Positions 316 through 32,699 are shown, numbered from the stretch's first letter. The stretch: DNA of 61,352 bases from a virus (IMGVR_UViG_3300009187_000027:1-61352), one strand, 5' to 3'. The notes: a model not told the origin generated them from the sequence alone. A program made the numbers and translations.

Positions 316-2545
316 TTGGAGTGCCCGGCAGAACGCGAACAGCAACTATGCGAAACTCGGGACGATGAAGTACACCCCGCAGCAGGCGAAGGCTATGGCC
401 CAACTGCTCAACCAGTTGCCGGGTGACGCTCCGATCCTCTCCAACTCCACGCTCGACGCTCAGTCGCGATATCTCGGCGGCAGATACCGCCAGATCGCCA
501 TGACACCCGAGGTGCTGGACACGCTCGCCTCCAAGGCTGTCGAGGTCGCACCGAAGAACGTGCCCGGCGGCAACTCGGTCAACCTGATAACCGCTCTGAA
601 CCAGTTGGCCCTGACCTCGCCCAACCCCGAACTCAAGGCGCTCAAGGAAGCCTACAAGGCTGCGCTTGCAACGATGCCGGGCGGCAAGAAGCCGGGCTTC
701 TGGGCGTGGGCTGCCACGCAGGATGCGTCGATCAACAGCCACATGCCGGGCTTCAAGGCGGCGCTCGCGGCAGACCCCGCACTGAGGTTCCCCGAGTACC
801 TCGCCAAGCAGGGTGACACCCGGTTCATGCCCGGCGGTGCGTCCGACAAACTCAGGGCTGCGGTCGCCAAGCGGGTGGGCAAGAACCCAGAGGACATCCG
901 CCTCTCCAACTACTCGATCCCGAGCGACCTCGTCAGCAGGATGAAGGAGGTCGATCAGTACTACCAGCAGCCCAAGGCTGCTAGCGCAATTCGGGAGGGC
1001 GTCGATCAATTCAATAGGCTGTTCAAGGCACAGGTCTTGCTCTGGCCCTCGCGTTACACCCGCGATCTCATGAGCGGCTTCGTATCCAACACACTGGAGG
1101 CTGGTGCCGACAAGGCTGCGTGGGGGTATCAAGCAGCCACGAAGATTCTCAATGGCGACAAGCAGGCGACCGCCGAGGCACTGCGTGGGCTGGAGCGTTA
1201 CAAGGGCATCGCGGATGACAAGCAACTCCTCGACGCCTTCTACGAGGACATCGGCACCCACAAGGTGCTGACCGGAATCTCCGCCGACCTCGACAAGGAT
1301 GCTGGCATCGCAGGCCAGAGCGTCACCAACATGCTGCCGGGCGTGGTGCCGAAGAGTGCATCACAGATACTCACCGACGCCGCCGGGAAGATGGTCGCCA
1401 ACAAGGGGATGCCAGACTATTTCGGCATTCAAGGAGTTGCACCGTATCTCGGAGTGTTCGGTCACAAGGCAAACACCAAAACAACTGGTGCGCTCTACAA
1501 GGCGGGCGAAGAGATGGCGAACTACACCGACGATCTGAATCGTCTCGGTGGGTTCCTCGCCATGATGTCCAATGGATTGGCCCCGGCGGAGGCTGCCAAG
1601 AGAATCGCATCGGCTCATGTCGTGTACGACGATCTCTCAGAGTTTGAGAAGGGACTGCGCCGCCTCGACCCGTTCTATGCCTATAACCGGGGCATCACCA
1701 AGTGGGGCGTGAAGGCTCTCCAAGAACCTCAAAGCAAGTTGATGCGGATGTACCGCGTCAACGACCGGCTCACGCAGAGCGACGAGGATGCGTACACGCC
1801 ACAGACGATCCGCGATTCAGGCGGCTTCGCCATCCCGAAGTGGGTGGACACTGTCACAGGGCTGCCGCTCGCTGACCTTGGCGACGGTCGCCGAGGATAT
1901 ATCAGCAACCTCGACCTGCCGACGATGGGCGTTGCCAATCTTGCATCCATCAGGAAGCAGGGCAACGACATCGATTGGTCTGGTACGGCTTCAGCCACTG
2001 CGTCGAATTTCCTGAAGCGATCTGCGCCGCTCACGAAAGCCGCGATGGAGTTGGCATTCCAGCGAGACTCATTCTCCAAGCAGCCGCTGGGCCAGAGACC
2101 GACATCGCTTGAGAACACGCTCACCGCTGTGCTGCCGCAGGCAGTTAAGCAGTACATGCCGCAGAACACAGAGGGTCAGGTCAATCTGCCGACGCTCATA
2201 GACAAGGCAGTCGAACTCGCTTACCCCGCTGGCGGTCGAGTGTTCGGCTTCACGCAGGCAGCGAGCGACATGAAGAGCCCGAGTTCGGCTGCGTCAGTGG
2301 GCAATGCCCTGTTCAACACTTTTTCGCCCGTCAAATTTAGGGCGTATGGACAGGAGACCATCAACCGTGACGCGATGCGCGTTTTGGATGACCAGTTCCG
2401 AACCTACGGGGTCATGGAGATGCCGCTCGTCTCCGATGAAGATGTCGAGAAGATGTCTCCCTCGCTCCGCAGGAACTACGAGATCAGGAAGGGACTCCAG
2501 CAGGTCGAGCGTGAGCGCCGAAAGGCGAGGGCTGCTGGTCAATAG
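23..2545 (+). CDS. C-terminal part of the large putative ejection protein (continues from 59911)
   Basis: 840-aa Ala/Gly-rich ORF, last gene of the virion module; position typical of podovirus core proteins. Confidence 0.75.
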   Translation: MKHPYGAGYRPYQADASVAGISIPKEARKQSLFSPVTADMLARDPHLALPGGIDQLRYYSTDKRFVNGRGLNAAGVKYTDAEVADILQKEVLDPNSAYWSARQNANSNYAKLGTMKYTPQQAKAMAQLLNQLPGDAPILSNSTLDAQSRYLGGRYRQIAMTPEVLDTLASKAVEVAPKNVPGGNSVNLITALNQLALTSPNPELKALKEAYKAALATMPGGKKPGFWAWAATQDASINSHMPGFKAALAADPALRFPEYLAKQGDTRFMPGGASDKLRAAVAKRVGKNPEDIRLSNYSIPSDLVSRMKEVDQYYQQPKAASAIREGVDQFNRLFKAQVLLWPSRYTRDLMSGFVSNTLEAGADKAAWGYQAATKILNGDKQATAEALRGLERYKGIADDKQLLDAFYEDIGTHKVLTGISADLDKDAGIAGQSVTNMLPGVVPKSASQILTDAAGKMVANKGMPDYFGIQGVAPYLGVFGHKANTKTTGALYKAGEEMANYTDDLNRLGGFLAMMSNGLAPAEAAKRIASAHVVYDDLSEFEKGLRRLDPFYAYNRGITKWGVKALQEPQSKLMRMYRVNDRLTQSDEDAYTPQTIRDSGGFAIPKWVDTVTGLPLADLGDGRRGYISNLDLPTMGVANLASIRKQGNDIDWSGTASATASNFLKRSAPLTKAAMELAFQRDSFSKQPLGQRPTSLENTLTAVLPQAVKQYMPQNTEGQVNLPTLIDKAVELAYPAGGRVFGFTQAASDMKSPSSAASVGNALFNTFSPVKFRAYGQETINRDAMRVLDDQFRTYGVMEMPLVSDEDVEKMSPSLRRNYEIRKGLQQVERERRKARAAGQ

Positions 2546-2993
2546 CCATGCGACCGTTCAGGAACTCAGGCCCGATGTACGAGTAGTCTTCAGTGTCGAA
2601 CGGGCACAGTGACTCGTCGCCATCGAGCAAGTAGAACTCCTGCCTGAGAAGAAGATACTCGCTGCCGGTGAGCAGAACCCCCGCCGCCATCTGTGCCTGC
2701 TTTTTTAGGGCTGCCTCTCTCTGGCGGGCGGCTACCTTCTCGCGGCGGCAACGCTTCGCATCTCGGGCCTTCTGTCTCTCAGAGAGAAAGTCGGAGCCGA
2801 GGCAGACACCAACCCCACGACCTCGCCTCTTGATTTCAGCAACAATGTAGGCAGGGCATCTGGGGATCGAATCGACGCACCATCGAAGGTAATCGGCATC
2901 GACCTCAGTGACAGGGCAGTTCCGCCACTTCCCAAAGGTCATCACTTGAGGGCATCCGACCCGCGTTGTCTCGCTCGCTCTTTCCATCACCAT
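2484..2993 (-). CDS. DUF3820/QSregVF_b-like domain protein
   Basis: MTFGKWRNCPVTEVDADYLRW matches the MPFGKYKG..I..VP..YL.W pattern; AAGGAG RBS. Confidence 0.7.
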   Translation of the reverse strand: MVMERASETTRVGCPQVMTFGKWRNCPVTEVDADYLRWCVDSIPRCPAYIVAEIKRRGRGVGVCLGSDFLSERQKARDAKRCRREKVAARQREAALKKQAQMAAGVLLTGSEYLLLRQEFYLLDGDESLCPFDTEDYSYIGPEFLNGRMAIDQQPSPFGAHARPAGVPS

Positions 2994-3360
2994 CTCTCCT
3001 TCTTGTAGGGCGATCTCTTAAACACAGTGGGGTAGACCCGGAGTGAGCGAGTGAACAGTGACTCCCCCCCGCAGGGGAGAGTCACGGAACAAGGTCGGGC
3101 ATCCCCGTCGTTTCGCTTGTTCACAGCGGGTGGCATAGGATTACGGGGGGCCACCATCGTTCATCACGACCTCCTACCCCGAGGTGGCGGGCACCTGCCT
3201 GCATCAAACCGCCGAGTCACCAAGCGTTTTGCTATCCACCCCACGGGCTGTGGCCCTTGCGCCAAAGAAGCCCGTGTTTACTCCACCGTTTCGACCTCAG
3301 TCTTCGGCTGGTGGAAACACCGCTGCCCCTTCCTGAATGGGGCTCTGTGCAAGCCGCCCC
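2994..3360 (-). ncRNA. Candidate structured leader or ncRNA
   Basis: No convincing ORF; several nested inverted repeats; promoter-like element at 3361-3386 just upstream. Confidence 0.4.
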
Positions 3361-3386
3361 ATTCTAGGAATCAGGTCAACAGATCG
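3361..3386 (-). promoter_or_regulatory. Short-spacer promoter-like element A
   Basis: CGATCTG TTGACC TGATTCC TAGAAT. Confidence 0.6.
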
Positions 3387-3411
3387 GTCTCATTAAGATC
3401 GAGAAAAATTC

Positions 3412-4095
3412 TTAGAGACCCGCCGTGAACGTGCGTCCCGCCGTGACGAAAAACAGACGCACCAGAAAAGCACCCATCAGCGTGAGCATCAGGCTGCTGG
3501 GCTCTGGAATGGGATCGGGCGACGGGACTGCGGTCGCCGCCATCAAGGCCACCGAACTCCTGAGTCCCGTCTGCTGGAGCGGCTGCCTGATGAGGGACAG
3601 CAGCACAGAGCCAGTGCCAGCAGATACTTGTGCGCTCGCCCGGAAATAGGTCGTGGCGGAGACAATGGTGGCGAGGTCTCCGATGGCGACCCGAGCCCTC
3701 GCCTCGCCCGAGTAGCCGTAGAGCGAGACCTCCAGTGGCAGCAGCAGGTCTCGCGTCAGCGACAGGGTATACCCCTGACCGCTCGACACCGAATCAGGGC
3801 TCAGTGATGCGTATCCCAAGCCAGAGGACACCGTCTGGCCTCCGACAACGAACTGCGTCTGCTCGATGCCGAGCGAGCCCAAGGCGATTCGGGGGCTGCC
3901 CATGCTGATCGCGACGGCGGTGCCGCTCAAGTAGCCGCCCGTGCCCGAAAACGATGCGACCGTCGAGGCATTGTCGCCTGCCCCCCAGACGGCATAGTCG
4001 CCATAGAGGCTGGCTCCCCCGTTGTACTGCTCGACCGTGATGACATCAGCCGATGCCACCGCAGTGAGCGCAAGAAAAGCCCCGAGCAGACGCAC
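3412..4095 (-). CDS. PEP-CTERM sorting-domain surface protein
   Basis: Signal peptide MRLLGAFLALTAVASA; C-terminal IPEPSSLMLTLMGAFLVRLFF; AGGAGG RBS. Confidence 0.8.
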   Translation of the reverse strand: MRLLGAFLALTAVASADVITVEQYNGGASLYGDYAVWGAGDNASTVASFSGTGGYLSGTAVAISMGSPRIALGSLGIEQTQFVVGGQTVSSGLGYASLSPDSVSSGQGYTLSLTRDLLLPLEVSLYGYSGEARARVAIGDLATIVSATTYFRASAQVSAGTGSVLLSLIRQPLQQTGLRSSVALMAATAVPSPDPIPEPSSLMLTLMGAFLVRLFFVTAGRTFTAGL

Positions 4096-4144
4096 AGATC
4101 ACCTCCTTTTAAGGACACGACGCGATCCACTCGGGGCGCTATGC

Positions 4145-4978
4145 TTATGGGGCTTCATCCAGCGGCGGCGGCACCGGCACTGACTCGGTGAGTTGCGAGA
4201 AATCTATGTAGAAGCGGGCGGCGAGGAGAGGATTGCTGTGCCCGAGAAAGCGAGTGGCACTTCCCGGCATACGAGCCTCTAGGTGTGTGGCTGCCGAGCG
4301 TCTTAGCCACTGTATGGAGCCGTCTGCGATCCCGGCAGCCTTGCGAATTTTGCGAAACTCCCGGTGCATCTGGGTGGTCGAAATTGCCCAGCCGAAAAGC
4401 CTCCCGTCAGGGCTGATCTCGCCCAGCCGATGAAGCAGGTCTCTCGTCTTCTCTGAGATGGGACGCACCACCACCTGCCGGGTCTTGCCTGCGGTGACGC
4501 ACACAGCCCCTGAACGGATGTTCGTCCTCCGCAGGGCAAACAGGTCGCCACGCCTGAGTCCGGTCTCATAGCCGACTCGCAGAAAAGCCTCAAACCATAG
4601 GGCTCTCGGGCACCCAGACGGAGAAAATTTTCCTGTGGCCTCCGCCGATCTATTGACAAGCCGGATAAGATCGGATCGTGACCACGCGGGGACGGGCTCG
4701 CGGGGCACTCGGATGGCTGGGCACTTGGGTGGGTGGGCGATCAGCCCCTCCTCATAGGCCCACCTCCAGACAGCCACGATCATGCCTCGCCGGGCTGCGA
4801 GAGTGATCGGGCGATAGCGATTTCTCACGGAGGAGAGATGCGACCACACCAGATCACGGCTGATCGTCTCGCGGGTGATGCCCGCCTTCTCAAGGATGCG
4901 TCCAAGCGCCCGCATGTTGTGAGCGTACATCGCGCTCGTCTCGCGTGTTTTTAGGTATTGCTCGATTAGGTCTCGCAC
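4145..4978 (-). CDS. int: Tyrosine recombinase/integrase
   Basis: ETGLRRGDL (Arg I), GKT (Lys), QWLRRS (Arg II), LGHS, FY (Tyr); GTG start after GGAG. Confidence 0.88.
   Translation of the reverse strand: MRDLIEQYLKTRETSAMYAHNMRALGRILEKAGITRETISRDLVWSHLSSVRNRYRPITLAARRGMIVAVWRWAYEEGLIAHPPKCPAIRVPREPVPAWSRSDLIRLVNRSAEATGKFSPSGCPRALWFEAFLRVGYETGLRRGDLFALRRTNIRSGAVCVTAGKTRQVVVRPISEKTRDLLHRLGEISPDGRLFGWAISTTQMHREFRKIRKAAGIADGSIQWLRRSAATHLEARMPGSATRFLGHSNPLLAARFYIDFSQLTESVPVPPPLDEAP
4646..4671 (+). promoter_or_regulatory. Short-spacer promoter-like element B (antisense within int, facing the replication operon)
   Basis: CGATCTA TTGACA AGCCGGA TAAGAT. Confidence 0.55.
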
Positions 4979-5049
4979 TGCTAGACTCCACTGAACGCAT
5001 GTACATCTACATCTTTCTCTGACGGCGAGTGTTAAAAAGTTTTCCGCAC

Positions 5050-5970
5050 ATGTCAACCAACGAAAAAAACTTGGCCCTACTAAAAGCATGTAAGTCCCAC
5101 TCGCTGGCGGTCGGAGAGGCGTTCGTTCTCCGCGACCTGCCCAACGAGGACTACCACTCGCTCCCGATCCTGTCGAAGTCGCCAGCGTGGGACTTCCACC
5201 GACACGGGCCTCGCTGGTTCCAGCAGACCCGCATCACCAGAACCCAGCCTGCCTACGGGTCGCAGGCAATGCAAGACGGTACGCTCGTACACCTCGCTTT
5301 GGAGGTGACACCCCCCGTTTATCGGGCTAAACGCACGGTAATCCCCGAGGAGTACCAGACGGCGACCGGCGGGATGTCGCAGTCGAAGTCTGCCAAGGCA
5401 TGGCGGGCCGATCAGCCGCCCGACGCCCTGCTGGTGAGCCCGGCATCCGATGCGCTAGTCGAAGCCATCCTTGCCGAGGCGTTCACCAACCCGGCATTCG
5501 TGTCTCTGTACGAGCGTGTCGCTGAACGCGAACTCTCGGTGTTCGGCAGGCGACCGGACGGTCACCTCACTCGCTGCCGGTATGACGCGATCACCGAGGA
5601 CGGCATCGCGCTCGATTACAAGACAACGCGCGATGCCCGCCCGCTGGAGACATGGATCAAGGCTGTGATAGATCACGGCTACCACTTCCAGCAGTCGTGG
5701 TATCAGACGCTTGGAATTCTCGCGGGCGTTGTCAGCGACGAACCGCTGCACTTCATCACGCTGTCCACCACCGCACCCTATCAGGTGCAGGTCGTGACGC
5801 TGCCCGCCGCTCTTGTCGATCCGCAGGACGCACTGATCACTCGCGTACTCGATGAGATCGCCGCTCGCACAGAGACCGACTACTGGTCGCCAGATGGGTA
5901 CGGAGAGGTTCGGGAACTAGCGGTGCCTGCGTGGGCACTGCGTCAACTAGAGGAGAGCATCAATGGCTGA
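5050..5970 (+). CDS. PD-(D/E)XK exonuclease, RecE/ExoVIII-like (DUF3799)
   Basis: NEDYH..LSKS, GTLVH..LE, RCRYD, DYKTT, YHFQ..WY; adjacent to ERF. Confidence 0.85.
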   Translation: MSTNEKNLALLKACKSHSLAVGEAFVLRDLPNEDYHSLPILSKSPAWDFHRHGPRWFQQTRITRTQPAYGSQAMQDGTLVHLALEVTPPVYRAKRTVIPEEYQTATGGMSQSKSAKAWRADQPPDALLVSPASDALVEAILAEAFTNPAFVSLYERVAERELSVFGRRPDGHLTRCRYDAITEDGIALDYKTTRDARPLETWIKAVIDHGYHFQQSWYQTLGILAGVVSDEPLHFITLSTTAPYQVQVVTLPAALVDPQDALITRVLDEIAARTETDYWSPDGYGEVRELAVPAWALRQLEESING

Positions 5971-13856: not shown

Positions 13857-14501
13857 TCATGCACTAGGGAGACCGCCGAACACGACGCTGCTACGAGCAG
13901 CATCGATCACCCAATCGACCGAGCCGAACTGCACCGCCCGATACTGCTGGCCCTGCCAGAAAACTGCGGGGCTGTGCATCAGCGACAAATCGAACATCAC
14001 GCAGTCACCGAGCCTGATCTCCCGTGGATCAGCGACGATGTCATCGGTCAGCGTCACGCCATCGGTCACTGGCTGGCGGACGCACAGCCACGGCTTCGCG
14101 AACGACGCGGCGTGGGAGCATCTGCGTTTGAGCAGGAACCCCCAGCACGGGACGATCATCGCACCGCCGACCACCTGCTTACCCTCTGTCGCGGCAGCCA
14201 TTGCGTAAGGCCACTCCGACCGCCAATCGTAGGGGTTCACCCGCCGCATGCCGACCTCCGTATCCACGCCCATCTGGCGTCGGAACCCGGTCATCGCGGA
14301 GTCCAACTGCATGGCGTGATCGATGACGATTGGACACCACGACGCCAGCACACCAGTTGCCTTGCGGTTGGTGACCGCAGCCTTGAGACCTTTCCGACCG
14401 AGCCTCCGCCAAATCCCCTCGACAGCCCCGGTCGTACCTACGATCTTCCGGTGCGTCTTATCGTAAGCCGCGACCAGTGATGGTCTGTCTATCCGCCGCA
14501 T
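13857..14501 (-). CDS. Hypothetical protein
   Basis: GGAGG RBS; in-operon position. Confidence 0.65.
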   Translation of the reverse strand: MRRIDRPSLVAAYDKTHRKIVGTTGAVEGIWRRLGRKGLKAAVTNRKATGVLASWCPIVIDHAMQLDSAMTGFRRQMGVDTEVGMRRVNPYDWRSEWPYAMAAATEGKQVVGGAMIVPCWGFLLKRRCSHAASFAKPWLCVRQPVTDGVTLTDDIVADPREIRLGDCVMFDLSLMHSPAVFWQGQQYRAVQFGSVDWVIDAARSSVVFGGLPSA

Positions 14502-14502
14502 C

Positions 14503-16008
14503 TCAGCCTCCCCTCTTTGCGAGTTCACAAACCTGCATCCACGACGGGATCGGGTACGCCCCGTCCCGCTGCCTGACCAGAGCCACGATCACCCTCGACT
14601 TCAGCCGCTGCTTGGGATAGGGCGTGATGCCATCGGTGATCAGGATCATGCAGTCAGGCTTGAGTTCCCGCTCGCATGCCTCCAGCACCACGCCCATGTC
14701 GGTGCCGCCACCGTGGCCCACCTTCATCGCCTTCGCAGACCTCACGACATCGCGAGAGTGGACTCGCGTGTCGCCCTGCACCACGGTCACCTGTCCGAGA
14801 CGCTTCACCCCCTTCTCGATCACGCCGAGGGCACGGTCACGCAACTCGCTCTCATACCCGAGTTGCATCGAGCCCGAGGTATCCAGCACCACCACCGCAG
14901 ATGGCGTCTGCTTGACCACGCCACGCAGGCGAGGCCCGTCCTCCTGCTGGCGACGAGAGAGCCGCCGCAGGGTGAAGTCGGGCCTGCCCACCGGGCTCGC
15001 AACCGCACGGCAGATGCGGGACAGGAGCAGATCGAACGGGTCAACCTGCCGGGTGAACCGCAGGTCGAGAGCCTCGACCAGTTGGCTGGGGATCGAGCCG
15101 GGCGAGCCAGCCTCGATCTCCTTGATCTTCTCCGCCAAGTCCTTGTCGGCAGCCCACTCACGCTCATCGTCGGTGCCCGAGTCGGGCTCCTCCCATGAAC
15201 GAGGGATGCCGTCAGCACTGCTGCTGCCCGGCGGGTCTACGTCTGCCTCATTCCCGCCATCGTCAGGGCTATCTCCGCCCTCCGCTGCTGGCCCGCCCTT
15301 GCCACCGTCACCATCCTCCGCATCATCGTCACCGCCCGCTGATGAACCGTCGCCTTCATCGTCATCCTCATCGTCGCCCTCGCCGGGCTGCGAGTCGGCA
15401 TCGCCATCGCCGTCATCATCTTCGCTCGATTCCTCCTCGCTCTCGGAGGGAACACCTTCGCCATCCCCGTCTTCGTCCCCGTCCCCGGCATCGTCGGACT
15501 CGTCCTGCTCGCTATCGTCATCACCGTCTGCATCTGACTCGGACTGATCGTCATCGCTCTGCTCCTCATCGTTAGGCTGCTGACGCAGCAGTTCGTAGTA
15601 CTCGGTCGCTGACAGGTTCGAGGGGAACCCGTCATCCTCTGCCACCATCACGCCACTCGGTGCATCGCTGATCCACTTCTTGAGGATTCCATTCACGACA
15701 TAGTCGCAGGCCACATTCCAGAGCCGTGCATTCTCGGCGGTCGGCTTCTCGCCAAGCACCCGTCGAGCGATGCGGGCATGGCCCAGCACCACATGCAGCA
15801 CCTCATGCAGGATCACGAACGCACCTGCCGGGGTGCTGATGCGGTCGGCAAACGCCGGGTCGAAGTAGAGATTCCCCCGAGCGTCCACCGCCGCAGTGCC
15901 CAGCCCCTTCCTCTCGTAGGTGGGCATGCCGTAGACCCGAGCCGCGAGATACGGCAGGATCAAACGGGATGCGATCTTCCAAGCGGTCACCTTCTCACGC
16001 GGTTCCAT
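14503..16008 (-). CDS. DUF2201-type metallopeptidase-like/VWA protein
   Basis: HEVLH, WNVACD..VN, acidic linker, MIDAS DTSGSM, GGGTD, ITDG. Confidence 0.9.
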   Translation of the reverse strand: MEPREKVTAWKIASRLILPYLAARVYGMPTYERKGLGTAAVDARGNLYFDPAFADRISTPAGAFVILHEVLHVVLGHARIARRVLGEKPTAENARLWNVACDYVVNGILKKWISDAPSGVMVAEDDGFPSNLSATEYYELLRQQPNDEEQSDDDQSESDADGDDDSEQDESDDAGDGDEDGDGEGVPSESEEESSEDDDGDGDADSQPGEGDDEDDDEGDGSSAGGDDDAEDGDGGKGGPAAEGGDSPDDGGNEADVDPPGSSSADGIPRSWEEPDSGTDDEREWAADKDLAEKIKEIEAGSPGSIPSQLVEALDLRFTRQVDPFDLLLSRICRAVASPVGRPDFTLRRLSRRQQEDGPRLRGVVKQTPSAVVVLDTSGSMQLGYESELRDRALGVIEKGVKRLGQVTVVQGDTRVHSRDVVRSAKAMKVGHGGGTDMGVVLEACERELKPDCMILITDGITPYPKQRLKSRVIVALVRQRDGAYPIPSWMQVCELAKRGG

Positions 16009-16045
16009 CGCAGTCTCCTTTCTGTTGGTTGTCGTTCCGAAACAA

Positions 16046-17173
16046 TCAGCCAATCGTCGTTCGCTTCTTCAGTTCGATCAGCGGCTTGAGGGCGGCAGCC
16101 TTGGGGGCGTAGCCCTTCTCGCTGGCGATCCGCTGGAGTTCCCCGGTGTGGCGGAGTGCCAGTTCGGGGGACGCCCTCTCACCCACGGTGGCGAGGAACT
16201 TCGCCGCCGCATCCCATCGGTCGGGGCTGAAGTCCCTGCCCGAGAGGGTCGCCATCACCGCACCCGTCACGGTGATCGTCCGGTCGGGACGAGCCGGGTC
16301 GTGGGCGAACGTGACGAAGCCGTCGAGCAGGTCAACGGGGTTGACCAGATCGTTGGCAGCCCGCCATGTCACGAACTGAAGCGTGGCGTTGTCGCCAACG
16401 CAGCCCTCGACCATCGACCGCACCATCTTGCTGCCGACCGTCATGTCGCAGCCGCATGCATCGGCGGCGGCGAGGCAGCGGACAGCGTTCGACCACGACC
16501 GTTCAGTGGGGTACGCCCACTGCGAGTCATCCTCTGGAACAACGGAGTCGAGGTTGTCCGACGCCGTCAGGAAGTCAGCGAGCAGGCCACCCCACCGCTC
16601 GACGCAGCCGCTCTGATCCCAGTTGGTGGGCAGGGTCGGGAACACGGGGTCTTCCCACTTGAGGGTGCGGAGACCAGACAGCCACGCCTTCCTATCCTTC
16701 TGCCACTGGGCGTGGAAGAACCTGTTCACCGTGGGCAGGGACAGCGGCTGCCCGTTGGGCGTGATCGCCGCCGGGTTGGTCGCCGCGATCACCACCGTAT
16801 CCCTCGACAAGTGGAAGTCACCGACCCGCAGGTCTTGAATCAGCGTGAGGAACGCTGCCTGCACGGCAGGTGCGACCGCACACAGTTCATCGAGGAAGAG
16901 CAGGCCACCCGGAGTGAACAGAGCCTCCGCCCAGCCCATCGGCAGCATTCGGCAGAGACCCTTCGCGTTGTCGGGCACCGGCAGACCGCCGATGTCCTCC
17001 GGGGAACACTGCGTCCCGAGCAGCGTGACGAACCGACGCTTCAGCGAGCGGGCCATCGCGTTGATGGTTGCCGTCTTGCCCGCACCCGGCGGGCCGACGA
17101 GCAGGACGGGGACGCCCGCCATCGCAGCGATGAGGGCGGGAAGCATCGGGTGATCGAACACAATCGCAAACAT
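16046..17173 (-). CDS. MoxR-like AAA+ ATPase
   Basis: GPPGAGKT, LLFLDEL, AATNP, NRF; adjacent VWA gene. Confidence 0.9.
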   Translation of the reverse strand: MFAIVFDHPMLPALIAAMAGVPVLLVGPPGAGKTATINAMARSLKRRFVTLLGTQCSPEDIGGLPVPDNAKGLCRMLPMGWAEALFTPGGLLFLDELCAVAPAVQAAFLTLIQDLRVGDFHLSRDTVVIAATNPAAITPNGQPLSLPTVNRFFHAQWQKDRKAWLSGLRTLKWEDPVFPTLPTNWDQSGCVERWGGLLADFLTASDNLDSVVPEDDSQWAYPTERSWSNAVRCLAAADACGCDMTVGSKMVRSMVEGCVGDNATLQFVTWRAANDLVNPVDLLDGFVTFAHDPARPDRTITVTGAVMATLSGRDFSPDRWDAAAKFLATVGERASPELALRHTGELQRIASEKGYAPKAAALKPLIELKKRTTIG

Positions 17174-17251
17174 GTGAGAGACTCCTGTGGGAACCATCGA
17201 ACCCAGCGGGGAGGAACACCCTCCCCGCAAAACAATCAGCCAATCGCCAGA

Positions 17252-18118
17252 TCAGGCGGAGATATCCGCCAGTTCCAGCATCGCGAACTTCGTGTCGAGT
17301 GCCTCGACCACCATCGCGACCTCATGCAGACCGACGCCGAACATCTGCTGGTAGGCAGCGATCTTCTGCTTCGCGTTCTCGATGTCATCCTTCCTGCGGG
17401 CGATGCCGCCCTTGGTCATGTCGTGACCGGCGAGCAGGTCAGCCTCCAGTTCCGACCGCATCGCAGCGACCTCCGCCGTGAACGCCCGCACCGCCTCGCG
17501 AGCGATGTCGGGGTTGTCCAGCAGCGGGAACCGGGCCACCGACAGACGCACCTCCGAGTCGGGGTTCGCTGGCCCCTCCTCGATCTGCCTTGCCAGATCG
17601 GTGAACGTCTGGAGCAGACCACCAGCGAGGAAGTACACGCCGCCGCCGTCACGCAGCGACGTTGCCGACCACGCCTTGGTCATGGCCCTGACGAGCAGGC
17701 TGCCCACGGTGGACGCCTCGTAGTAGTCGAGCCGATCCCGGTAGATCGTCTCGATCTCCTGACCACCCGTGATGGGCAGGCCCGCGAAGGTGACCGAGAC
17801 CCGGTCGCTGGCGTCCGCCTTGACCGTGAACTGGTAGTCGTGGGTGTTGCTCTCGACCCCCTTGGTCTCACGCAGCACCTCGAAACCCAGCACCGCCCGG
17901 TCGAGCGGCACGATCTCCCACCTCGACCTCTTCCCCGCCTTGCCGAGGTGCTGCCTGATCGCACGACCGAGGGCCATCGCCCTCTTCTCCCGGCGGGGCA
18001 GCAACTTGCTGAGACCGAGGGACATGAACGCCCGGTCGAACACCGTCTTGCGGCAGCGACCGCTGTTCAGAACGACGAGAGCCCCATCGGCGGACGGGGG
18101 GATGGAAAAAGAACGCAT
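17252..18118 (-). CDS. Conserved hypothetical protein upstream of MoxR/VWA (DUF6744/DUF3150-like)
   Basis: LRDGGGVYF motif, C-terminal coiled coil, gene context. Confidence 0.55.
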   Translation of the reverse strand: MRSFSIPPSADGALVVLNSGRCRKTVFDRAFMSLGLSKLLPRREKRAMALGRAIRQHLGKAGKRSRWEIVPLDRAVLGFEVLRETKGVESNTHDYQFTVKADASDRVSVTFAGLPITGGQEIETIYRDRLDYYEASTVGSLLVRAMTKAWSATSLRDGGGVYFLAGGLLQTFTDLARQIEEGPANPDSEVRLSVARFPLLDNPDIAREAVRAFTAEVAAMRSELEADLLAGHDMTKGGIARRKDDIENAKQKIAAYQQMFGVGLHEVAMVVEALDTKFAMLELADISA

Positions 18119-18171
18119 GGGAAAACTCCTTGATGGAGGTGAAGAAAACAAAGGCATCACGCGATGCCAAT

Positions 18172-18202
18172 AAAAAAGGGACGCACCACAACGGTGCATC
18201 CC
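18172..18202 (-). terminator. Intrinsic terminator
   Basis: GGGATGCACC-GTTGT-GGTGCGTCCC followed by TTTTTT. Confidence 0.75.
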
Positions 18203-18228
18203 AGTGTCCAACACAGGTCAACAGATCG
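18203..18228 (-). promoter_or_regulatory. Short-spacer promoter-like element E
   Basis: CGATCTG TTGACC TGTGTTG GACACT. Confidence 0.5.
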
Positions 18229-18247
18229 ATCCGAATCAATCAGCCAA

Positions 18248-18775
18248 TCAGCAACTCGGCAGTGCCGAGAACACTGCACTCGCCGCGATGTCCTTGCCCT
18301 GCCGCTGAACCGAGCGGAGGGTGGAGCCCCGGCAGAAATTCGACTGCCTCTCCCCGCACTCATCGACCCGAGAGAGGTACTTCACGAACACGGTCTTCAC
18401 CTTCACGCCCTTGACCGCTCGCTCCATGACACGCATCTCCACGGTGCGGATGGTGCCACAGCCCTCGATCACCTCGACCTCGATCACCCTGCCGCCGAGG
18501 CCCACGCCACGAATGTCTGCCCGCCAGCAGAGCATGTGCCACTCGGGCTGGTCGTGCATGCAACGCACGGTGTAGGTGGCACCCATGATCGCCCTCTTCC
18601 AGCCGATGCGACCGAACTTCTTCCAGCCCTCCTCAGTGGAGAGGCTGGCCTCGCATCGCGACAGCAACTTGGTGCGGGTCACGGCGAACTTCGTGCCCCC
18701 ATACCAGTGGAAACCGCCCATGTTTGGGCTCGTCGTGATCCACCACCTCGACTTGTCTCGCGTCTTGCCCATCAC
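18248..18775 (-). CDS. Hypothetical protein
   Basis: Coupled to upstream stop; own stop fused to the 13-mer repeat. Confidence 0.65.
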   Translation of the reverse strand: MMGKTRDKSRWWITTSPNMGGFHWYGGTKFAVTRTKLLSRCEASLSTEEGWKKFGRIGWKRAIMGATYTVRCMHDQPEWHMLCWRADIRGVGLGGRVIEVEVIEGCGTIRTVEMRVMERAVKGVKVKTVFVKYLSRVDECGERQSNFCRGSTLRSVQRQGKDIAASAVFSALPSC

Positions 18776-19179
18776 TAGCCCTCCCCGGATGTGTCAATGG
18801 TCACGTTGCCGAACTTCAATTGCCCGTCCTCGCTCTCGCTGACAAAAGGGAACGGGATGTCCACGATCTGCCCCAGTTTCTTGACCTTGGCCTTCGTCTT
18901 TCGGTCAAGGTGCGAAGCCTTGACGCAGCCGATGGTTCCAGAGTCAACGCTGTACTCCCGACCCTCGTTGTCCTCGTAGATCCCGTCGCCATACGCGGTG
19001 CCGTGATAGGCCACCTCGATGCCGCCCTTCAGAACGAACCTGCCCTCAAAACATTTGTTTCGATTGGGCCCGGTTCGGATTGGGTACATGAGTTTCAGCA
19101 ACTCGTCCCACTGTGCGTCGGTCAGCACATAGCACAGATCACCGACGTAGTACCTTCCTTCAGGCATTCGCTCGCTCAT
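18775..19179 (-). CDS. Conserved phage hypothetical protein (DUF4241-like)
   Basis: YYVGDLCYV...TAYGDG.Y...VDSGTIGC; GGAGG RBS. Confidence 0.7.
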   Translation of the reverse strand: MSERMPEGRYYVGDLCYVLTDAQWDELLKLMYPIRTGPNRNKCFEGRFVLKGGIEVAYHGTAYGDGIYEDNEGREYSVDSGTIGCVKASHLDRKTKAKVKKLGQIVDIPFPFVSESEDGQLKFGNVTIDTSGEG

Positions 19180-19269
19180 CTCGTTGTCCTCCAGAAACAC
19201 AGCGACCCCGGTCAGGTAACGCACCTGCCGGGGTCGCTGTTGGTTGTGTCTTCCGAATCAATCAGCCAA

Positions 19270-19509
19270 TCATGCGATGCCGACGATCTCCATCGCCCGC
19301 TCCGCATGGTCTCTCTCGCACCACGCTACCGCCTCCGCCTTGGTCTTGACCAGCGGCGGGTAGATCGCCTTGTTGCCCTCATGCCTCGCCGCCTGCCAGC
19401 CCTTGAAGGGGGCCGGTCGGAGGGCATAGGTCACGCCACCTCCAGCATCCGCCTCCCACCAGCGTCGATCCGAGCCGATGTAGTACCGCCGCCTCCAACT
19501 CAGCATCAC
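19270..19509 (-). CDS. Hypothetical protein
   Basis: GGAGG RBS; stop fused to repeat. Confidence 0.65.
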   Translation of the reverse strand: MMLSWRRRYYIGSDRRWWEADAGGGVTYALRPAPFKGWQAARHEGNKAIYPPLVKTKAEAVAWCERDHAERAMEIVGIA

Positions 19510-19859
19510 TCACCTCCCTTCACGATGGAGTCCACCTCGTCGGTCATCGAACGCAGTAGGGTGCGGGCAGCGTCAGCCACCTCGCGGTGCCGCTCGTAGT
19601 CCCGCTCGATGCAGTCGGTCACCCGCTCAACGAGCCAGTGAACCCAGCGATCCCCGTTGCAAAGTTGCACTTGCCGGTGCAACTCACGCAGCATGGCGAT
19701 CAGCGGGTTCTTGCCAACGAACCCGTCCTCCCGCATCCACTGGCGGATTGCATCAATCTGCCGGTACACGCCGACTTCTGTGAACGCCTCAGTCTTCGTC
19801 CACTTCACGAACCTCTCGACCATCGCATCGCTAACGTCATACGTTGAACGCTTCGCCAT
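19506..19859 (-). CDS. Hypothetical protein
   Basis: AAGGA RBS downstream of repeat. Confidence 0.7.
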   Translation of the reverse strand: MAKRSTYDVSDAMVERFVKWTKTEAFTEVGVYRQIDAIRQWMREDGFVGKNPLIAMLRELHRQVQLCNGDRWVHWLVERVTDCIERDYERHREVADAARTLLRSMTDEVDSIVKGGE

Positions 19860-19909
19860 TGCATCATCCTTTCCTGTTGGGGTTGAATCGATCCAGAACA
19901 ATCAGCCAA

Positions 19910-20497
19910 TCACGAACGCTTTGCCTCCAGCACCACCCACTTCTGTGCCGCATCTTCCAGCGACATTGCGAAGTAGTTCTCGCCACGCAGCACGACCTGT
20001 TCCAGCACCCGCCCCGCCTCATCGCAGGTGGCGGCGACGATCTCGTTGAACTCAGCCAACGATTCGACGCTGCCGAGGCACAACTTCAGGTTGAGCGTCT
20101 GGCCCATCAGCGGAAGGGCATCCATCAGATCACCGAAACTGTCATCGCCCCGGTCGAATGAGAACCGAGCCTTCTCGCAGGCGGCGTATGCCTTGCGCGT
20201 GTAGTGCGACCACGACAGGGCGAAGTGAACCGCCGCCGCGAAATCGCCACCACCCACCACGGCACACCTGAAGAACTCGTCCGCCGCCGCCTCAACGTAG
20301 CCCTCCTTCCGATGCGTCATCGTGTCGAGCAGCACCTCGCGGAACCGCACGACCACATGCCAGAAGTGTTCCGGCTGCATGGGAGGGACGCCACGCTTGA
20401 AGTCCATGAAATTCTCATCGAACTCAGACCGGGCATCGCTGAACGCCTTGGCCTGCTTCATGATCTTGCTGGTCAGGATGCTCGTTGCTTTCGTCAT
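19910..20497 (-). CDS. Hypothetical protein
   Basis: AAGGAG RBS; stop fused to repeat. Confidence 0.7.
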   Translation of the reverse strand: MTKATSILTSKIMKQAKAFSDARSEFDENFMDFKRGVPPMQPEHFWHVVVRFREVLLDTMTHRKEGYVEAAADEFFRCAVVGGGDFAAAVHFALSWSHYTRKAYAACEKARFSFDRGDDSFGDLMDALPLMGQTLNLKLCLGSVESLAEFNEIVAATCDEAGRVLEQVVLRGENYFAMSLEDAAQKWVVLEAKRS

Positions 20498-20541
20498 CGT
20501 CAGTCTCCTTTGGAGGGTGTGAATCGAACCCGTCAAACCAA

Positions 20542-21105
20542 TCAGCCACGCGGACGGCAGTCCCGAAACATCCAGACCGGGGAGGACTTGGTGCCGCCCA
20601 CCTTCATCGCACTGTGCATGGGCACGCCGAGCGCGCTGCGGCACAGTTCGTACACCTCGTAGTCGCTGCCCGCGTGGTGGCGTGGGCTGGACGGGTGATT
20701 GAGGATCACCATGCCGCCGTCACGCACGGCACGTCCGATCTGTTTGAGCGTTTCACGCATCATCGCCACCGAAGACTGCACGTTCATCACGTTCGATGCG
20801 AAGACGAGGTCGTACTCACCGGGGTGGATGATCAGCCCCGTGTAGTTCTTGCCGAAGTCGTACTCGTGAACCTTCGCCTCGGGGTGAGCCTTGCGGATCA
20901 TCTCCGAATGCAGGAAGTGCCCGTCCTTCCCCGGCTTCCCGGCACCGAAGTTGAGGATGTTGTGGAACCCGATGCGGTTGCCGACAGAATCGGCGTGTAG
21001 CAGGTCGATCACGACACGGGGGACAAGAGCGCGGGCACCAACGGCACCAGCACTACGGGCAGTGGCATTGGCACGAGCGATGTAGTCGAGGGTCATCGAT
21101 TTCAT
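20542..21105 (-). CDS. Class I SAM-dependent methyltransferase-like protein
   Basis: ILNFGAGK motif I; YDLVFASNVMNV. Confidence 0.7.
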   Translation of the reverse strand: MKSMTLDYIARANATARSAGAVGARALVPRVVIDLLHADSVGNRIGFHNILNFGAGKPGKDGHFLHSEMIRKAHPEAKVHEYDFGKNYTGLIIHPGEYDLVFASNVMNVQSSVAMMRETLKQIGRAVRDGGMVILNHPSSPRHHAGSDYEVYELCRSALGVPMHSAMKVGGTKSSPVWMFRDCRPRG

Positions 21106-21190
21106 TGGGGAGCCTCCGAAAACGCAGCGACCCCGGCGGGAAACGCTCCAGCCGGGGCCGCTGCAATGGGTGTTCAGATCAATCAGCCGA

Positions 21191-21670
21191 TCAGTCGCTG
21201 ATCACCACCGAGGTGACCTCGCATGCCACCATCCCTGCGTCGATGCCGAGGGCCAGCAGCACAGCCACCGCTGCATGGCACCCCGTTAAGGCGGCGATTG
21301 CCTCGTAGCAGTGGGCAATCGAGAGCATCAGCACAGCCACGCCGATGGCCCCGGTGATGCGAGCGAGGCTGTAGTGCCGCCGCCGATGGGTCAGCCCCGC
21401 CACCTTGCCCAGCAGCAGGACGAGCAGCGGGATGACGGCACCCAGCACGACCGCCGCCCACTGCAAACCCTCCGGGGCATGCCGCGATCCCGCCCACGCA
21501 TTCAGTGCCATCGACAGCACCGCCGAAACGGTGACGTAGAGCAGGCACCAGCGGGCCAGACCGTCACGCCGCCGGATGGTGGTGCGGGGGGGCTGCGTCT
21601 TCCGACGCCGAGACTTCTTCTCGGTGGTGACGGTGGTGACGGTGGGAATCCTGTTGATCGTGTCGATCAT
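21191..21670 (-). CDS. Four-helix membrane protein (DUF2637-like)
   Basis: Four hydrophobic segments, LS..N and GID motifs. Confidence 0.6.
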   Translation of the reverse strand: MIDTINRIPTVTTVTTEKKSRRRKTQPPRTTIRRRDGLARWCLLYVTVSAVLSMALNAWAGSRHAPEGLQWAAVVLGAVIPLLVLLLGKVAGLTHRRRHYSLARITGAIGVAVLMLSIAHCYEAIAALTGCHAAVAVLLALGIDAGMVACEVTSVVISD

Positions 21671-21764
21671 GTGGTGAACCTCCTGAAACGCGACAGGCCA
21701 CGAACTGGAACGCCCAGCCGTGGCCTGCCGCAGTGTGTGTGTCCGAACCAATCAGCCGAACGGA

Positions 21765-22742
21765 TCAATGGCAGCCGATAGCCACCACTCCGGGGAAGAC
21801 GAACGTGCCATCGGCTTTCTTCGCACCGCATGCATGGGCGTTCTCGCCCTTGTGCGTCACGCAGGCACCGCACTTGCCCGAGCAGGACAATGCCCGCTCG
21901 TAGCCCAGAGCCCGAGCGGCTTCACGCACCGCCCGGTGATACTCAGGATCGTCGTAGCGGTCGTAGCCCTTGGCCTTCCGCATGAACTTCTTGTCGATGT
22001 ACACCGACAGAAACCGCTCACGGGTCACGGGCAGACCGAGCATCTTCTCCATGAATTCGGCATCGCCGTCGTAGATCGATCCGCTCGACACGTTTAGAAC
22101 GTAGTTGTCGGGGAACGCGGCACCCGTGGCATGCCAATCCATGAACAGCCCCCACGACTTGGAGTACCCGTAGCACAGAACGTCGGGCCGCTGGCGGAGC
22201 ATGTTCCACCAGAATTGCATGGTCGAGAGGGAATCGAAATCGCCGTCAACGTACAGCCGGAACGTGATGTCCACGGGCAGCACCTTGAATGCGTCGATGA
22301 TCGCCCGCCGATTGAACCGCAGCAGCAGGGTATTCATGAGTTGCCGCAGATAGCCGCCGGGCGTCCGCCATGCTTTCTTGGAGTAGCACCACTTGGCACA
22401 ATCGCCCGCACCTGGGCATGTGACGATGGGCAACGCCGAGAACGCCACGAACGGCAATTTCATGTTGCCATGCATGGCGAAGATGGCGAACGGCAGACCG
22501 CCGTCCCGCATGCACTGGACGAACCGCAGCATCTCTTCACGCCATCCCCGAGGGGTAGCGGAACCGGCACGGCGGGCAGCCTTGCGATTCCTCTTCTTCT
22601 GCGATGCACCGGGCAGTGTGATCGGCAGAGTGAGAGCGACAGCCTCGATGCATGCCAGTGCATCATCGAGCGTTTCAGCCCGCATGCACTGCCATGCCAG
22701 ATCGAGGGCACGTTGATTCGAGAACTTGGGAGCGTAGCCCAT
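21765..22742 (-). CDS. GP88-like Cys-rich (Fe-S/radical-SAM-like) protein
   Basis: GNMKL...TCPGAGDCAKWCY, FRLYVDGDF, YGYSKS, C-terminal CSGKCGAC. Confidence 0.7.
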   Translation of the reverse strand: MGYAPKFSNQRALDLAWQCMRAETLDDALACIEAVALTLPITLPGASQKKRNRKAARRAGSATPRGWREEMLRFVQCMRDGGLPFAIFAMHGNMKLPFVAFSALPIVTCPGAGDCAKWCYSKKAWRTPGGYLRQLMNTLLLRFNRRAIIDAFKVLPVDITFRLYVDGDFDSLSTMQFWWNMLRQRPDVLCYGYSKSWGLFMDWHATGAAFPDNYVLNVSSGSIYDGDAEFMEKMLGLPVTRERFLSVYIDKKFMRKAKGYDRYDDPEYHRAVREAARALGYERALSCSGKCGACVTHKGENAHACGAKKADGTFVFPGVVAIGCH

Positions 22743-22835
22743 GTGAGCCTCCATGAAACGCGACAGCCCGCAGCATGGAAACGCTCCACGCTGCGGGCTG
22801 TCGGGGTGTGCAAAACAATCAGCCGAATGAACGAA

Positions 22836-23162
22836 TCAGCGGGGGCGGGCAACGACCTCATGCCCGCCGCGATTCACCTCGATCATGCCGCCCTCGGCGG
22901 CGGCATCGCAGAGGGCGTCGAGGCAGCCCAAGGAGATGATCTTGTCGGTGTAGTCCTCGCCGCCCCTGCAATACTTCATCGAAGCATGCTGTTCCCCGAC
23001 GGCGAGACTGCGGAGCGTCGGAGACACACAATGCTCGATCACATCGTCGCTCCACGTTCCACTCCAATGCTGTTGAATGTGGTCGAGCAGTTGGGAGAGG
23101 TTGCAGACGTATCGGCGGACGCTGTGGGTCTGATGCTCAACGGTGACGAGAAGGAATCGCAT
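22836..23162 (-). CDS. Hypothetical protein (first gene of the accessory array)
   Basis: AGGAGA RBS downstream of repeat. Confidence 0.65.
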   Translation of the reverse strand: MRFLLVTVEHQTHSVRRYVCNLSQLLDHIQQHWSGTWSDDVIEHCVSPTLRSLAVGEQHASMKYCRGGEDYTDKIISLGCLDALCDAAAEGGMIEVNRGGHEVVARPR

Positions 23163-24033
23163 GGTGGTGTTCTCCTGTTTGGGTGTTTGGGTCTCACAGA
23201 ACAATCAGCCAATCCCAAAAGCCCACTAGGCTTGTCGCATGCTGCGACGGTCTTGCCATAAACCTTGTGCGGGGTCGTGGTGACACGGGCCGCGATGGCT
23301 GGTCGAAAATGGATGACGGTTTGGGTCTTCGCTGGGACATAAACCAAGCGAGAGACTTTGGGATCGCGGTACGCACATTCGGCCCCGCGTTCCGTTGCGG
23401 TCGTGCGGAAGTCCTTGCCCCGCCGCGAGTTGCGTCCGACCCCCGGCCCGGCCCCCCGCCGCATCGGCCCCCATATAACGCTCGCCCTCGCTATTTTTCC
23501 CCAAAAAACCTCATCGCCGCAGCGCATCTAAACCAAGCCCTCTCGCTGCCCGCCAAAAGCCCGATTGCTGAACAGGCGTTCACTTACCCTCCCCAGACCT
23601 GAACGCCCGTCTAATCGCATCCTAGAGCCTCACAGAGGCATGCCCGTCTTCGCCACCCTCTCTCCACAACATTGGCATGGAGGAGACATGGAGTACGCAG
23701 AAGAGTGGGACGAGCAGGACGATGCCCTCAGTGAACTCATCGAGTTCCTCTGAGCCGCTTGATCGCGACCGTCGCTACTTCGGAGACCCGTATGACCTCT
23801 TCACCGGCAGCCAGCCGTTCGGTGACCCCAACGCATGGCTCCCAGAGTCGGTGGACGCCAAGTCGCACTCGTTGCTCTATCCGCTGGGCATGGGCTGGTC
23901 GGAGTTCCGCCCTCCTGTGATCGAGCCCGCAGCCCCTGCGGAGCCGTCGAGCATTTCCCTTGCCATCTTCGCCATCGCCATCCTCTGGCTCATGGCTGTG
24001 CGTGATTTCATCCTCGCAAGAATTTTTGACCGT

Positions 24034-32631: not shown

Positions 32632-32699
32632 CCCCGGCGGAAGCCGGGTCTCGGGGCCACACCGTGGGGACGCCTGCGGTGTGGTTTCTAGGCTGACTT

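Follow-up and report, generated by a model that had tools for sequence, protein, structure and literature searches.

What do hairpins do that recur between the genes of a phage operon with different stems and largely the same loop? We addressed this question in the viral sequence IMGVR_UViG_3300009187_000027, a complete virus record of 61,352 bp (estimated completeness 100%) that is referred to below, at its full length, as the window. An earlier note on this DNA had described five hairpins with retained pairing and G(C/U)GUU loops between positions 17206 and 22803, and all five were confirmed on the minus strand, in the spacers of an operon of non-structural genes. We found that they represent a hairpin family that is real, strand-specific and conserved across an uncultivated freshwater phage lineage, one of the five being a marginal member, and that they form the optional part of a longer cassette repeated from spacer to spacer. 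For their function we tentatively favour a leaky intrinsic terminator, or attenuator, which may punctuate the operon RNA.

A covarying hairpin family

The hairpins, numbered H1-H5 by position, are listed with their z values and their scores in bits under the covariance model described below:

Positions 17206..17228, minus strand: H1, 9 bp, loop GUGUU; z -2.14; 11.1 bits, E 0.46.
Positions 19200..19239, minus strand: H2, 17-18 bp with a bulged A in the 3' arm, loop GCGUU; z -4.85; 73.4 bits.
Positions 21124..21164, minus strand: H3, 17 bp with one U-C mismatch, loop GCGUU; z -3.96; 64.5 bits.
Positions 21690..21731, minus strand: H4, 18 bp with a bulged U in the 3' arm, loop GCGUU; z -3.75; 68.7 bits.
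Positions 22761..22803, minus strand: H5, 19 bp, loop GCGUU; -43.6 kcal/mol, z -4.72; 49.9 bits.

Folding energies of the four spacers with long hairpins range from -42 to -44 kcal/mol and their z values from -3.75 to -4.85, a stability matched by 0 of 200 shuffles; for the H1 spacer (z -2.1), 5 of 200 shuffles fold equally well. In H2-H5 the base of the 3' stem enters a G(C/U)GUUU(U)C tail, with GGAGG 6-8 nt and the start codon 18-20 nt past the stem. The individual tails, each followed by GGAGG, are UGUUUCU for H2 (next start codon 19179), GUUUUC for H3 (21105), GUUUCA for H4 (21670) and CGUUUCAU for H5, where tail and GGAGG span 22760-22748 and the next gene, a member of the GP88 family, starts at 22742. 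The combination of a GYGUUU tail and GGAGG occurs at exactly these four sites and at no other gene start in the window, in agreement with the claim that a second G(C/U)GUUU overlaps the stem base of the four long hairpins ahead of GGAGG. H1 is built from an SD-like (Shine-Dalgarno-like) 5' arm, GGGGAGG, and a 3' arm CCUCCCC; it has no GYGUUUC tail, no adjoining SD sequence, and ends 32 nt before the start codon at 17173. Scoring 11.1 bits (E 0.46) against 50-73 bits for H2-H5, it is a marginal member, so the grouping of all five into one family stood for H2-H5 and not securely for H1. Inspection by eye, not a systematic search, showed no AACGC in the vicinity of the hairpins with which the loop could form a pseudoknot.

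Tested for covariation, the stems showed compensatory change at 13-15 of 18 pairs. RNAalifold predicted 18 pairs, 13 of which carried compensatory changes. Paired cells made up 87.3% of a 7-sequence alignment (68.7% when shuffled), 89.4% of a 10-sequence alignment (70.8%) and 92.7% of a 27-sequence alignment (72.4%), percentages that are partly circular because the aligned sequences had been picked as hairpins. The alignments of more than seven sequences were also fitted to the covariance model. Both sides changed at 13, 13 and 15 of the 18 pairs, respectively. In all three alignments 0 of 500 shuffles reached the observed covariation score, and sliding the 3' partners by 1-3 columns reduced pairing to 32-50%.

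The strand preference is equally visible in folding and in scoring. When 14 hairpins were folded on both strands, the sense fold was more stable in 12 and tied in 2, and G-U pairs numbered 15 in sense and 3 in antisense; in the five window hairpins they number 5 and 0, as expected from the claim that their wobble pairs favour the transcript strand. A covariance model, seeded on seven hairpins and with the loop consensus built into it, found only H2-H5 at high score in the window (50-73 bits in sense against 11-21 bits in antisense). Compensatory changes, stabler sense folds and this difference in score together uphold the view that the element is structured at the RNA level.

Outside the training set, the model recovered two copies in the related phage G002 (60.7 and 51.4 bits) and one in locus L216 (41.6 bits), so that a search of viral contigs, which the earlier note had suggested, did yield further copies with the same loop in related phages. 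A pattern for one stem subtype retrieved eight further viral contigs, five of them of 53-62 kb, and two small contigs binned as Planctomycetota; the loci that it fetched also held hairpins beyond those that the pattern required. Using the GP88-family protein as query, we found one close relative, G001 (locus L124), with 86% protein identity, and alignment-based searches added about 160 more distant loci. Searches with single proteins of the locus (g8, g11 and g10) and with GP88 as a single protein against genome contigs returned no relatives, and a search for the hairpin apex plus tail gave 117 chance matches and 0 hairpins.

Hairpin-bearing phages have in common an SSB protein, a DUF6744-like protein, a MoxR AAA protein and a DUF2201/VWA protein, with shared core proteins 31-65% identical. 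Because the proteins have diverged this far and non-genic DNA is alignable at one cassette only, the loop and tail must have been either selected or spread horizontally with the cassette. The earlier note had not recognised the motif, and Rfam gave no match: the whole window returned 0 matches in Rfam 15, and permissive filters over 15900-23400 returned 3 (E 0.47-1), at 18-25 bits against thresholds of 37-100. A search of the accessible literature found no description of this motif, either by its loop sequence or as repeated stem-loops of phage early genes.

Cassettes between the operon genes

The hairpins share their spacers with other repeated features, all on the same strand:

Positions 13857..23162, minus strand: non-structural operon of 13 genes, with an SD before each.
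Positions 16043..23214, minus strand: ten copies of a linear motif, a 9-mer core GGCTGATTG that usually forms part of the 13-mer GATTGGCTGATTG; cores at 16043, 17233, 18237, 19259, 19899, 20539, 21180, 21749, 22816 and 23202.
Positions 18153..18202, minus strand: two classical U-tract intrinsic-terminator hairpins, flagged by a terminator scan.

Exact copies of GGCTGATTG occur ten times, on the minus strand only and confined to 16043-23210, one in each spacer between non-overlapping genes. With up to one mismatch the number rises to 37 sites against 18.2 expected, a total reached in 0 of 100 shuffles. The motif is tied to the end of the preceding gene: nine of the ten upstream genes stop at TGA, and the stop lies within the core in two cases, 2 nt 5' of it in four and 7-15 nt 5' of it in four. 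The cassette thus runs from stop codon through linear motif, NTTYGGA and CA-rich tract to the SD. Each window hairpin lies 4-19 nt 3' of a same-strand copy of the core and, by coordinates, begins 23-33 nt past the upstream stop codon, which, judged by the size of the ribosome footprint, is far enough for it to be clear of a terminating ribosome and able to fold.

Hairpins with a GYGUU loop are present in five of the ten spacers, the spacer at 18237 holds the two terminators, and the other four have no hairpin. Spacers lacking a hairpin are 37-63 nt long, with no GYGUUU before the SD, and those with a hairpin are 78-94 nt long. Since the latter shrink to 44-55 nt once the hairpin is subtracted, hairpin and tail together behave like a facultative insertion, placed after the CA-rich tract and before the SD. 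The tandem terminators follow the linear motif and precede the SD of the gene starting at 18118, and thus occupy the position that the hairpin module takes elsewhere. The same spacer (18218-18247, minus strand) also contains ATCTGTT, which we take to be the class II pause/termination word of T7-type polymerases; this is probably a chance occurrence, because no T7-type polymerase was found.

The linear motif differs from phage to phage: a common GGCT is followed by GATTG, AGTAG, GATAG or TGTAG, some versions carrying TGA triplets and others TAG. G002 carries seven copies of its version, all on one strand, at 939-4340 and 57757-62394. In G001, five copies of the same 9-mer as in the window are followed by hairpins whose stems are unlike those of the window and whose loops are AACUU, ACGUU, CGAGUGA and GUGUU, and further hairpins lie in its other spacers. 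Searching viral contigs for the 13-mer yielded single chance matches only.

Several identities for these elements were considered and rejected. The linear motif has no sigma-70-like hexamers of a promoter; as a sigma-54 site it was rejected by eye, with the spacing one off and the motif in just two of ten copies; and an extracytoplasmic function (ECF)-type -35/-10 promoter, a tRNA anticodon-arm mimic and a CsrA site were dropped because key letters or positions of their consensus sequences were missing. Integron attC sites, the substrates of an integron integrase, are imperfect palindromes with an inverse-core site at one end and a core site at the other. They were rejected as a model because the letters conserved here, in the loop and in the 3' tail, repeat in the same direction and are not inverted partners at the base of the stem. 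From its sequence and placement, the linear motif behaves like a phage-specific protein-binding site, akin to a stoperator, or like a stop-linked module border. The stoperators of Cluster A mycobacteriophages (PMC9283540, in excerpt), a comparison that concerns the 13-mer only, are likewise asymmetric multi-copy motifs of about 13 bp that lie in short intergenic spaces in one orientation to transcription, in phages with an integrase and with central letters that differ between related phages. A difference is that here all copies lie within a single operon, where they overlap or adjoin stop codons; no repressor was identified here.

The cassettes are also linked with gene shuffling. Homology between G001 and the window covers the GP88 frame, from its start codon at 22742 to within nine bases of its stop, and resumes as a separate block in the cassette of the H2 spacer (82% identity), where the neighbouring genes are different. 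Homologues of the block g10-g13 and of the SSB gene are found in related loci, and none of g1, g3, g4, g5, g8 and g9 has one in ten related loci; the operon core conserved in all hairpin-bearing relatives is the pair of MoxR AAA and DUF2201/VWA genes with the flanking g10 and g13. Among metagenome contigs from four other runs, all of them DNA, placed on the region at 80% likeness, one has a joint at 18776/19188, by which the g8 frame (19179-18775) is gone and the cassette SD is fused to the next gene, and another has a joint at 20530/16038 between two spacers, close to their 9-mers. These joints are suggestive, not proof, of gene gain or loss at cassette borders. Taken across these alignments, cassettes flank non-conserved genes and coincide with gene gain, loss and reordering between relatives.

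Cassettes of other kinds were seen in two related loci. Locus L209, whose GP88 protein is 58% identical, carries at least six copies of a different cassette at about 500-3950 on the plus strand, in which the hairpin sequence itself is kept (11-bp arms, loop AAUUUC) between a conserved upstream word and a GUUUGG tail that precedes a GAAGGA ribosome-binding site. G001 has two copies of a second cassette type (L124 7470-7587 and 8460-8559), with wholly different inner hairpins and nearly identical outer flanks that can pair with one another.

What the hairpins may do

The reading that we favour, at a probability of roughly 0.4, is that the module is a leaky intrinsic terminator (attenuator) or a transcript-end hairpin that punctuates the operon RNA. 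On this model the hairpins would act on RNA, each module being a very stable stem-loop with an R-UUU-C tail inserted between the CA-rich tract and the ribosome-binding site, in cassettes that repeat along one long operon presumably transcribed by the host polymerase. Where transcription ended at the leaky terminator, the leftover 3' hairpin would also protect the upstream message, and expression would drop stepwise from gene to gene. Since the whole cassette is repeated, it could double as a homology patch for the gain, loss and reordering of accessory genes. What the sequences themselves establish is the structure, the strand on which it is read, its conservation, its position in the cassettes and the association with gene shuffling; termination or attenuation, and the stabilisation of messages by the hairpins, are functions that we infer.

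This reading is ranked first because the module combines a stable stem with a U-rich tail, because terminators occupy the same slot at 18237 and because the PeSL stem-loops discussed below have terminator activity. As in intrinsic terminators, a GC-rich stem with a short loop (3-8 nt there; 9-19 bp and five bases here) is followed by U residues and lies 3' of a stop codon, with canonical examples in the same position in spacer 18237. Some relatives have members with longer U tails, such as U5 in L427. Promoter-like sites number 1 in 12 kb against 1.8 expected, and that one is outside the spacers; in the absence of both a spacer promoter and a recognised phage RNA polymerase, host polymerase is expected to read through the operon, and any terminator in it must be leaky. 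By the same token, no promoter follows the hairpins, and strong termination would silence the rest of the operon, a difference from ordinary intrinsic terminators. The earlier note had offered a translational switch, a boxB-like element and RNase III sites as candidates; an optional module, set in cassettes at non-conserved genes and indels and in the neighbourhood of terminators, makes terminator-type punctuation at least as likely as any of these.

Two known phage systems are built along similar lines. The PeSL (promoter-early stem-loop) elements between the early genes of T4-type phages are, in the parts of the reports used here, measured terminators or attenuators that mediate modular shuffling (PMC2839356, PMC4122927). 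Both they and the cassettes described here are short repeated intergenic units in a plastic non-structural region, with a stable stem-loop and with SD and start codon at the end. In either system orphan genes lie beside the cassettes, and it is there that related phages differ by insertions, deletions and replacements (PMC2839356, PMC4122927, in part). As described there, a PeSL has a sigma-70-like promoter with the stem-loop 5' of it, whereas here there are no promoter-like hexamers and the hairpin lies 3' of the linear motif, adjoining the SD with 6-8 nt between. Loop and tail sequences are kept here while the stems covary, and the two systems have no sequence similarity. The second system is the start-associated sequence (SAS) of Cluster K mycobacteriophages, a 13-bp repeat containing an SD just 5' of start codons, about half of whose copies have conserved 17-bp inverted repeats upstream and are then called extended SAS, or ESAS (PMC3203893, in part). 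In both cases an asymmetric repeat lies at the translation starts of some non-structural genes in one orientation, and an imperfect inverted repeat with a variable spacer accompanies about half of the sites, 5 of 10 spacers here (PMC3203893, in part); the counterpart of the SAS itself would be the tail with GGAGG at four starts. In the available account ESAS arms are a conserved 17-bp sequence, whereas the arms of the present hairpins differ from copy to copy and conservation is limited to pairing, loop and tail. Unlike the SAS, which goes with the start codon, the 13-mer accompanies the stop codon of the preceding gene; sequences are unrelated and the host group is different.

Several observations weigh against a terminator as the full account. 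Stems of 17-19 bp exceed the usual terminator length. Long U tracts are indeed lacking, as had been claimed: the 8 nt after the stem contain 3-5 U in the five window hairpins, none of which was flagged by a terminator scan that required at least five T in those 8 nt. Across 22 full-length members of the family, 20 have 3-4 U in 8 nt (mean 3.1) with no lengthening, and the tail, which is R-UUU-C in nearly all of them, suggests a defined motif more than a U tract. Termination also leaves the loop unexplained, which is GCGUU in 14 of the 22, or in 15 with H5, which the covariance model aligned with extra loop letters. Thirteen members lie outside the discovery set and were retrieved without a pattern that included the loop; of these, 7 have GCGUU, 2 CGAGUGA and 1 each ACGUU, ACGUC and AACUU, and GCGUU rises to 8 of 13 if the L216 loop, aligned as GCGU, is counted; the seed hairpins of loci L427-L436, L438 and L442, which came from an RCGTT-loop pattern and entered the 27-sequence alignment, are excluded from the loop counts. 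By comparison, 117 distinct bacterial hairpins of the same stem type and with any loop included 1 with RYGUU, about the chance rate. An extra nucleotide at one position of the 3' arm recurs in 17 of the 22 members, and among the sequencing runs searched no RNA run was listed with the sequence. The constant three-U tail, conserved loop, recurrent 3' bulge and stem length are unexplained by the terminator model, and loop, bulge and tail imply an additional reader.

Such a reader is central to a serious, if less likely, alternative, in which the hairpin would serve as the operator of a protein, of phage or host origin, that binds RNA sequence-specifically. This protein might recognise the GCGUU loop on its rigid stem, together with the bulged 3' arm and the unpaired GYGUUUC copy next to the SD, and so control a subset of genes coordinately, either by hindering or promoting ribosome binding or by loading a nut-like antitermination complex ahead of the terminators at 18.2 kb, 5' of which four of the hairpins sit. 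A loop kept while stems covary, across contigs with 31-65% identical proteins, speaks for such an operator, as do the recurrent 3'-arm nucleotide, the constant 6-9 nt from hairpin base to SD and the lack of any general loop preference on bacterial stems of this type. Among GP88-encoding loci, moreover, GCGTT is the commonest pentaloop on stems of at least 8 bp (13 of 1,429), and among the matches listed [AG]CGTT loops fall 17 times on the gene-sense strand and 2 times on the opposite one. Yet loops have been swapped in homologous cassettes (the H2 counterpart in G001 has CGAGUGA, others AACUU or ACGUC), an operator has no need of 17-19 bp stems, half of the spacers do without a GYGUU-loop hairpin, and no candidate RNA-binding or N-like small basic protein was recognised, the only Arg-rich stretch being on a membrane-like protein. 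The nut sites of lambda offer a partial parallel, with a linear element, a hairpin with a five-base loop a few nt further on and a position 5' of early-operon terminators. Lambda boxB, however, has a short stem of about 5 bp and a purine-rich GNRA-like pentaloop, and occurs about twice per genome; here, in four or five copies, a G(C/U)GUU loop tops stems of 17-19 bp (9 bp in H1), related phages differ in the linear motif and not in the loop, and no N-like protein was found. The suggestion of a boxB-like element therefore failed on its defining shape, given the long stems and GCGUU loop. A more specific version of the operator, slightly less likely still, would make the GCGUU hairpin, the bulge and the GYGUUUC twin the recognition site of a factor common to this freshwater phage lineage, possibly phages of Planctomycetota. 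By nut-like antitermination or translational control, this factor would switch a set of accessory early genes together, as one multi-copy regulon borne by mobile cassettes.

The remaining readings are less probable. That the hairpins are RNase III sites, which would cut the polycistronic early RNA into single-gene messages by analogy with the early regions of T7 and SP82, where RNase III processing has precedent, seems unlikely to us: the stems come near two helical turns (17-19 bp plus a possible loop-closing G-U), the 3'-arm irregularity could steer cleavage, and the sites are intercistronic, just 5' of ribosome-binding sites in a non-structural operon, but stem length is borderline (H1 has just 9 bp) and a conserved loop and tail are not expected of such sites. 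T7 RNase III sites are likewise long hairpins, paralogous to one another, that separate the early cistrons in a polycistronic RNA of the phage; they have a conserved internal loop and a longer helix overall than the hairpins here. We think it improbable that the primary role lies in the DNA, with palindromes and linear motif serving as attC-like or PeSL-like sites of cassette exchange and RNA folding as a by-product. The phage encodes a tyrosine recombinase and an ERF/SSB recombination module, module borders coincide with cassettes, the accessory genes between them are not conserved, and a G-T bias could equally serve folded single-stranded DNA. Against this, no junction that could be placed falls in the hairpin, all of them being at the linear motif or at SD and start codon, four of ten spacers mark module borders without any hairpin, no attC-type core pair was seen, and the coupling of tail and SD suggests a role in the message. 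Least probable of all, in our estimation, is that the hairpins have no function of their own and are paralogous palindromes that spread with the cassette, kept paired by quasi-palindrome correction and inheriting their loop. Template-switch correction of imperfect palindromes is a known mutational route, and the hairpins are indeed paralogues: in two pairs of them the base of the 3' arm, the tail and the SD agree almost completely in sequence, and three contigs carry one cassette type in nearly the same form; persistence of loop and tail at 31-65% protein identity, where the rest of the spacer is unalignable, and the G-U strand asymmetry are nevertheless not expected from correction of DNA.

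The phage, its genes and the meaning of the cassettes

Besides the operon, the genome encodes an integrase (4145-5089, minus strand), whose recombinase match is to the general Phage_integrase domain only, a PDDEXK-like protein, an ERF-type annealing protein, SSB, a helicase, large terminase, portal, and head and tail proteins. No tRNA genes were found in the window, and no phage RNA polymerase was recognised in Pfam and PHROGs scans, which covered the large reading frames. Against cultured phages, neither a 9-kb region (near mode) nor the H2 cassette (distant mode) matched by DNA, a tblastn search with GP88 found no match, and the nearest cultured relatives of the terminase, from Xylella and Arthrobacter phages, are just 24% identical. 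By these comparisons the lineage is uncultivated and has no close relative among cultured phages. Labels from within Planctomycetota (Planctomycetaceae, Aureliella, Pirellulaceae and Pirellulales) are attached to the genome contigs L413-L417, L438 and L442, which comprise the nearest GP88 relatives in binned genomes and two hairpin-subtype contigs. They give a weak hint that the host may be among the Planctomycetota, the contigs being short and possibly phage DNA binned by chance.

Within the operon, the GP88-family gene (PF17338, E 4e-18) occupies 21765-22742 on the minus strand. Its protein has 954 relatives at E < 0.001 among 8,000 scored, invariant Cys clusters at positions 109, 115 and 119 and at 287, 291, 294 and 305, and motifs that include RLYVDGDF and GYSKSW; these features suggest a metal-binding enzyme, one that many aquatic phages appear to carry. 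Two operon genes have weak matches, one methyltransferase-like and one DUF6744-like, and others encode the MoxR-type AAA and DUF2201/VWA proteins. The last two lie at 14503-17173 (minus strand), the MoxR-type AAA gene first and then the DUF2201 metallopeptidase-like/VWA gene, whose product has a long acidic insert. On the 5' side of the first cassette, about 450 nt (23226-23680, minus strand) hold no convincing gene, the sole reading frame being Gly/Arg-rich with no family match, and face a divergent plus-strand gene at 23677; this is likely the promoter and leader region of the operon. Two long plus-strand hairpins lie directly 5' of late-region reading frames. One, at 32647-32694, has about 21 pairs; its 3' arm contains GGUUUCUAGG, and the hairpin may cover the ribosome-binding site that belongs to the gene preceding the large terminase. 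The other, at 39469-39514, has about 19 pairs and includes CGCTGATTG, a copy of the 9-mer with one mismatch.

These findings make the hairpin motif a candidate family for Rfam and suggest that it is kin to the known intergenic regulatory cassettes of phages, its function being what we infer from structure and placement. Repeated intergenic cassettes are a means by which several phage groups regulate and shuffle their accessory genes, and they have seldom been described beyond T4-type phages and mycobacteriophages. Stop-linked linear motifs combined with a covarying hairpin whose loop appears selected would offer a compact model for how polycistronic early transcripts are metered, and the same cassettes would bear on how orphan genes move between phages. 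If the loop does have a dedicated reader, the system would be a new RNA-protein regulatory pair; if it has none, it would be a well-documented case of terminator-type punctuation as well as a candidate Rfam family.

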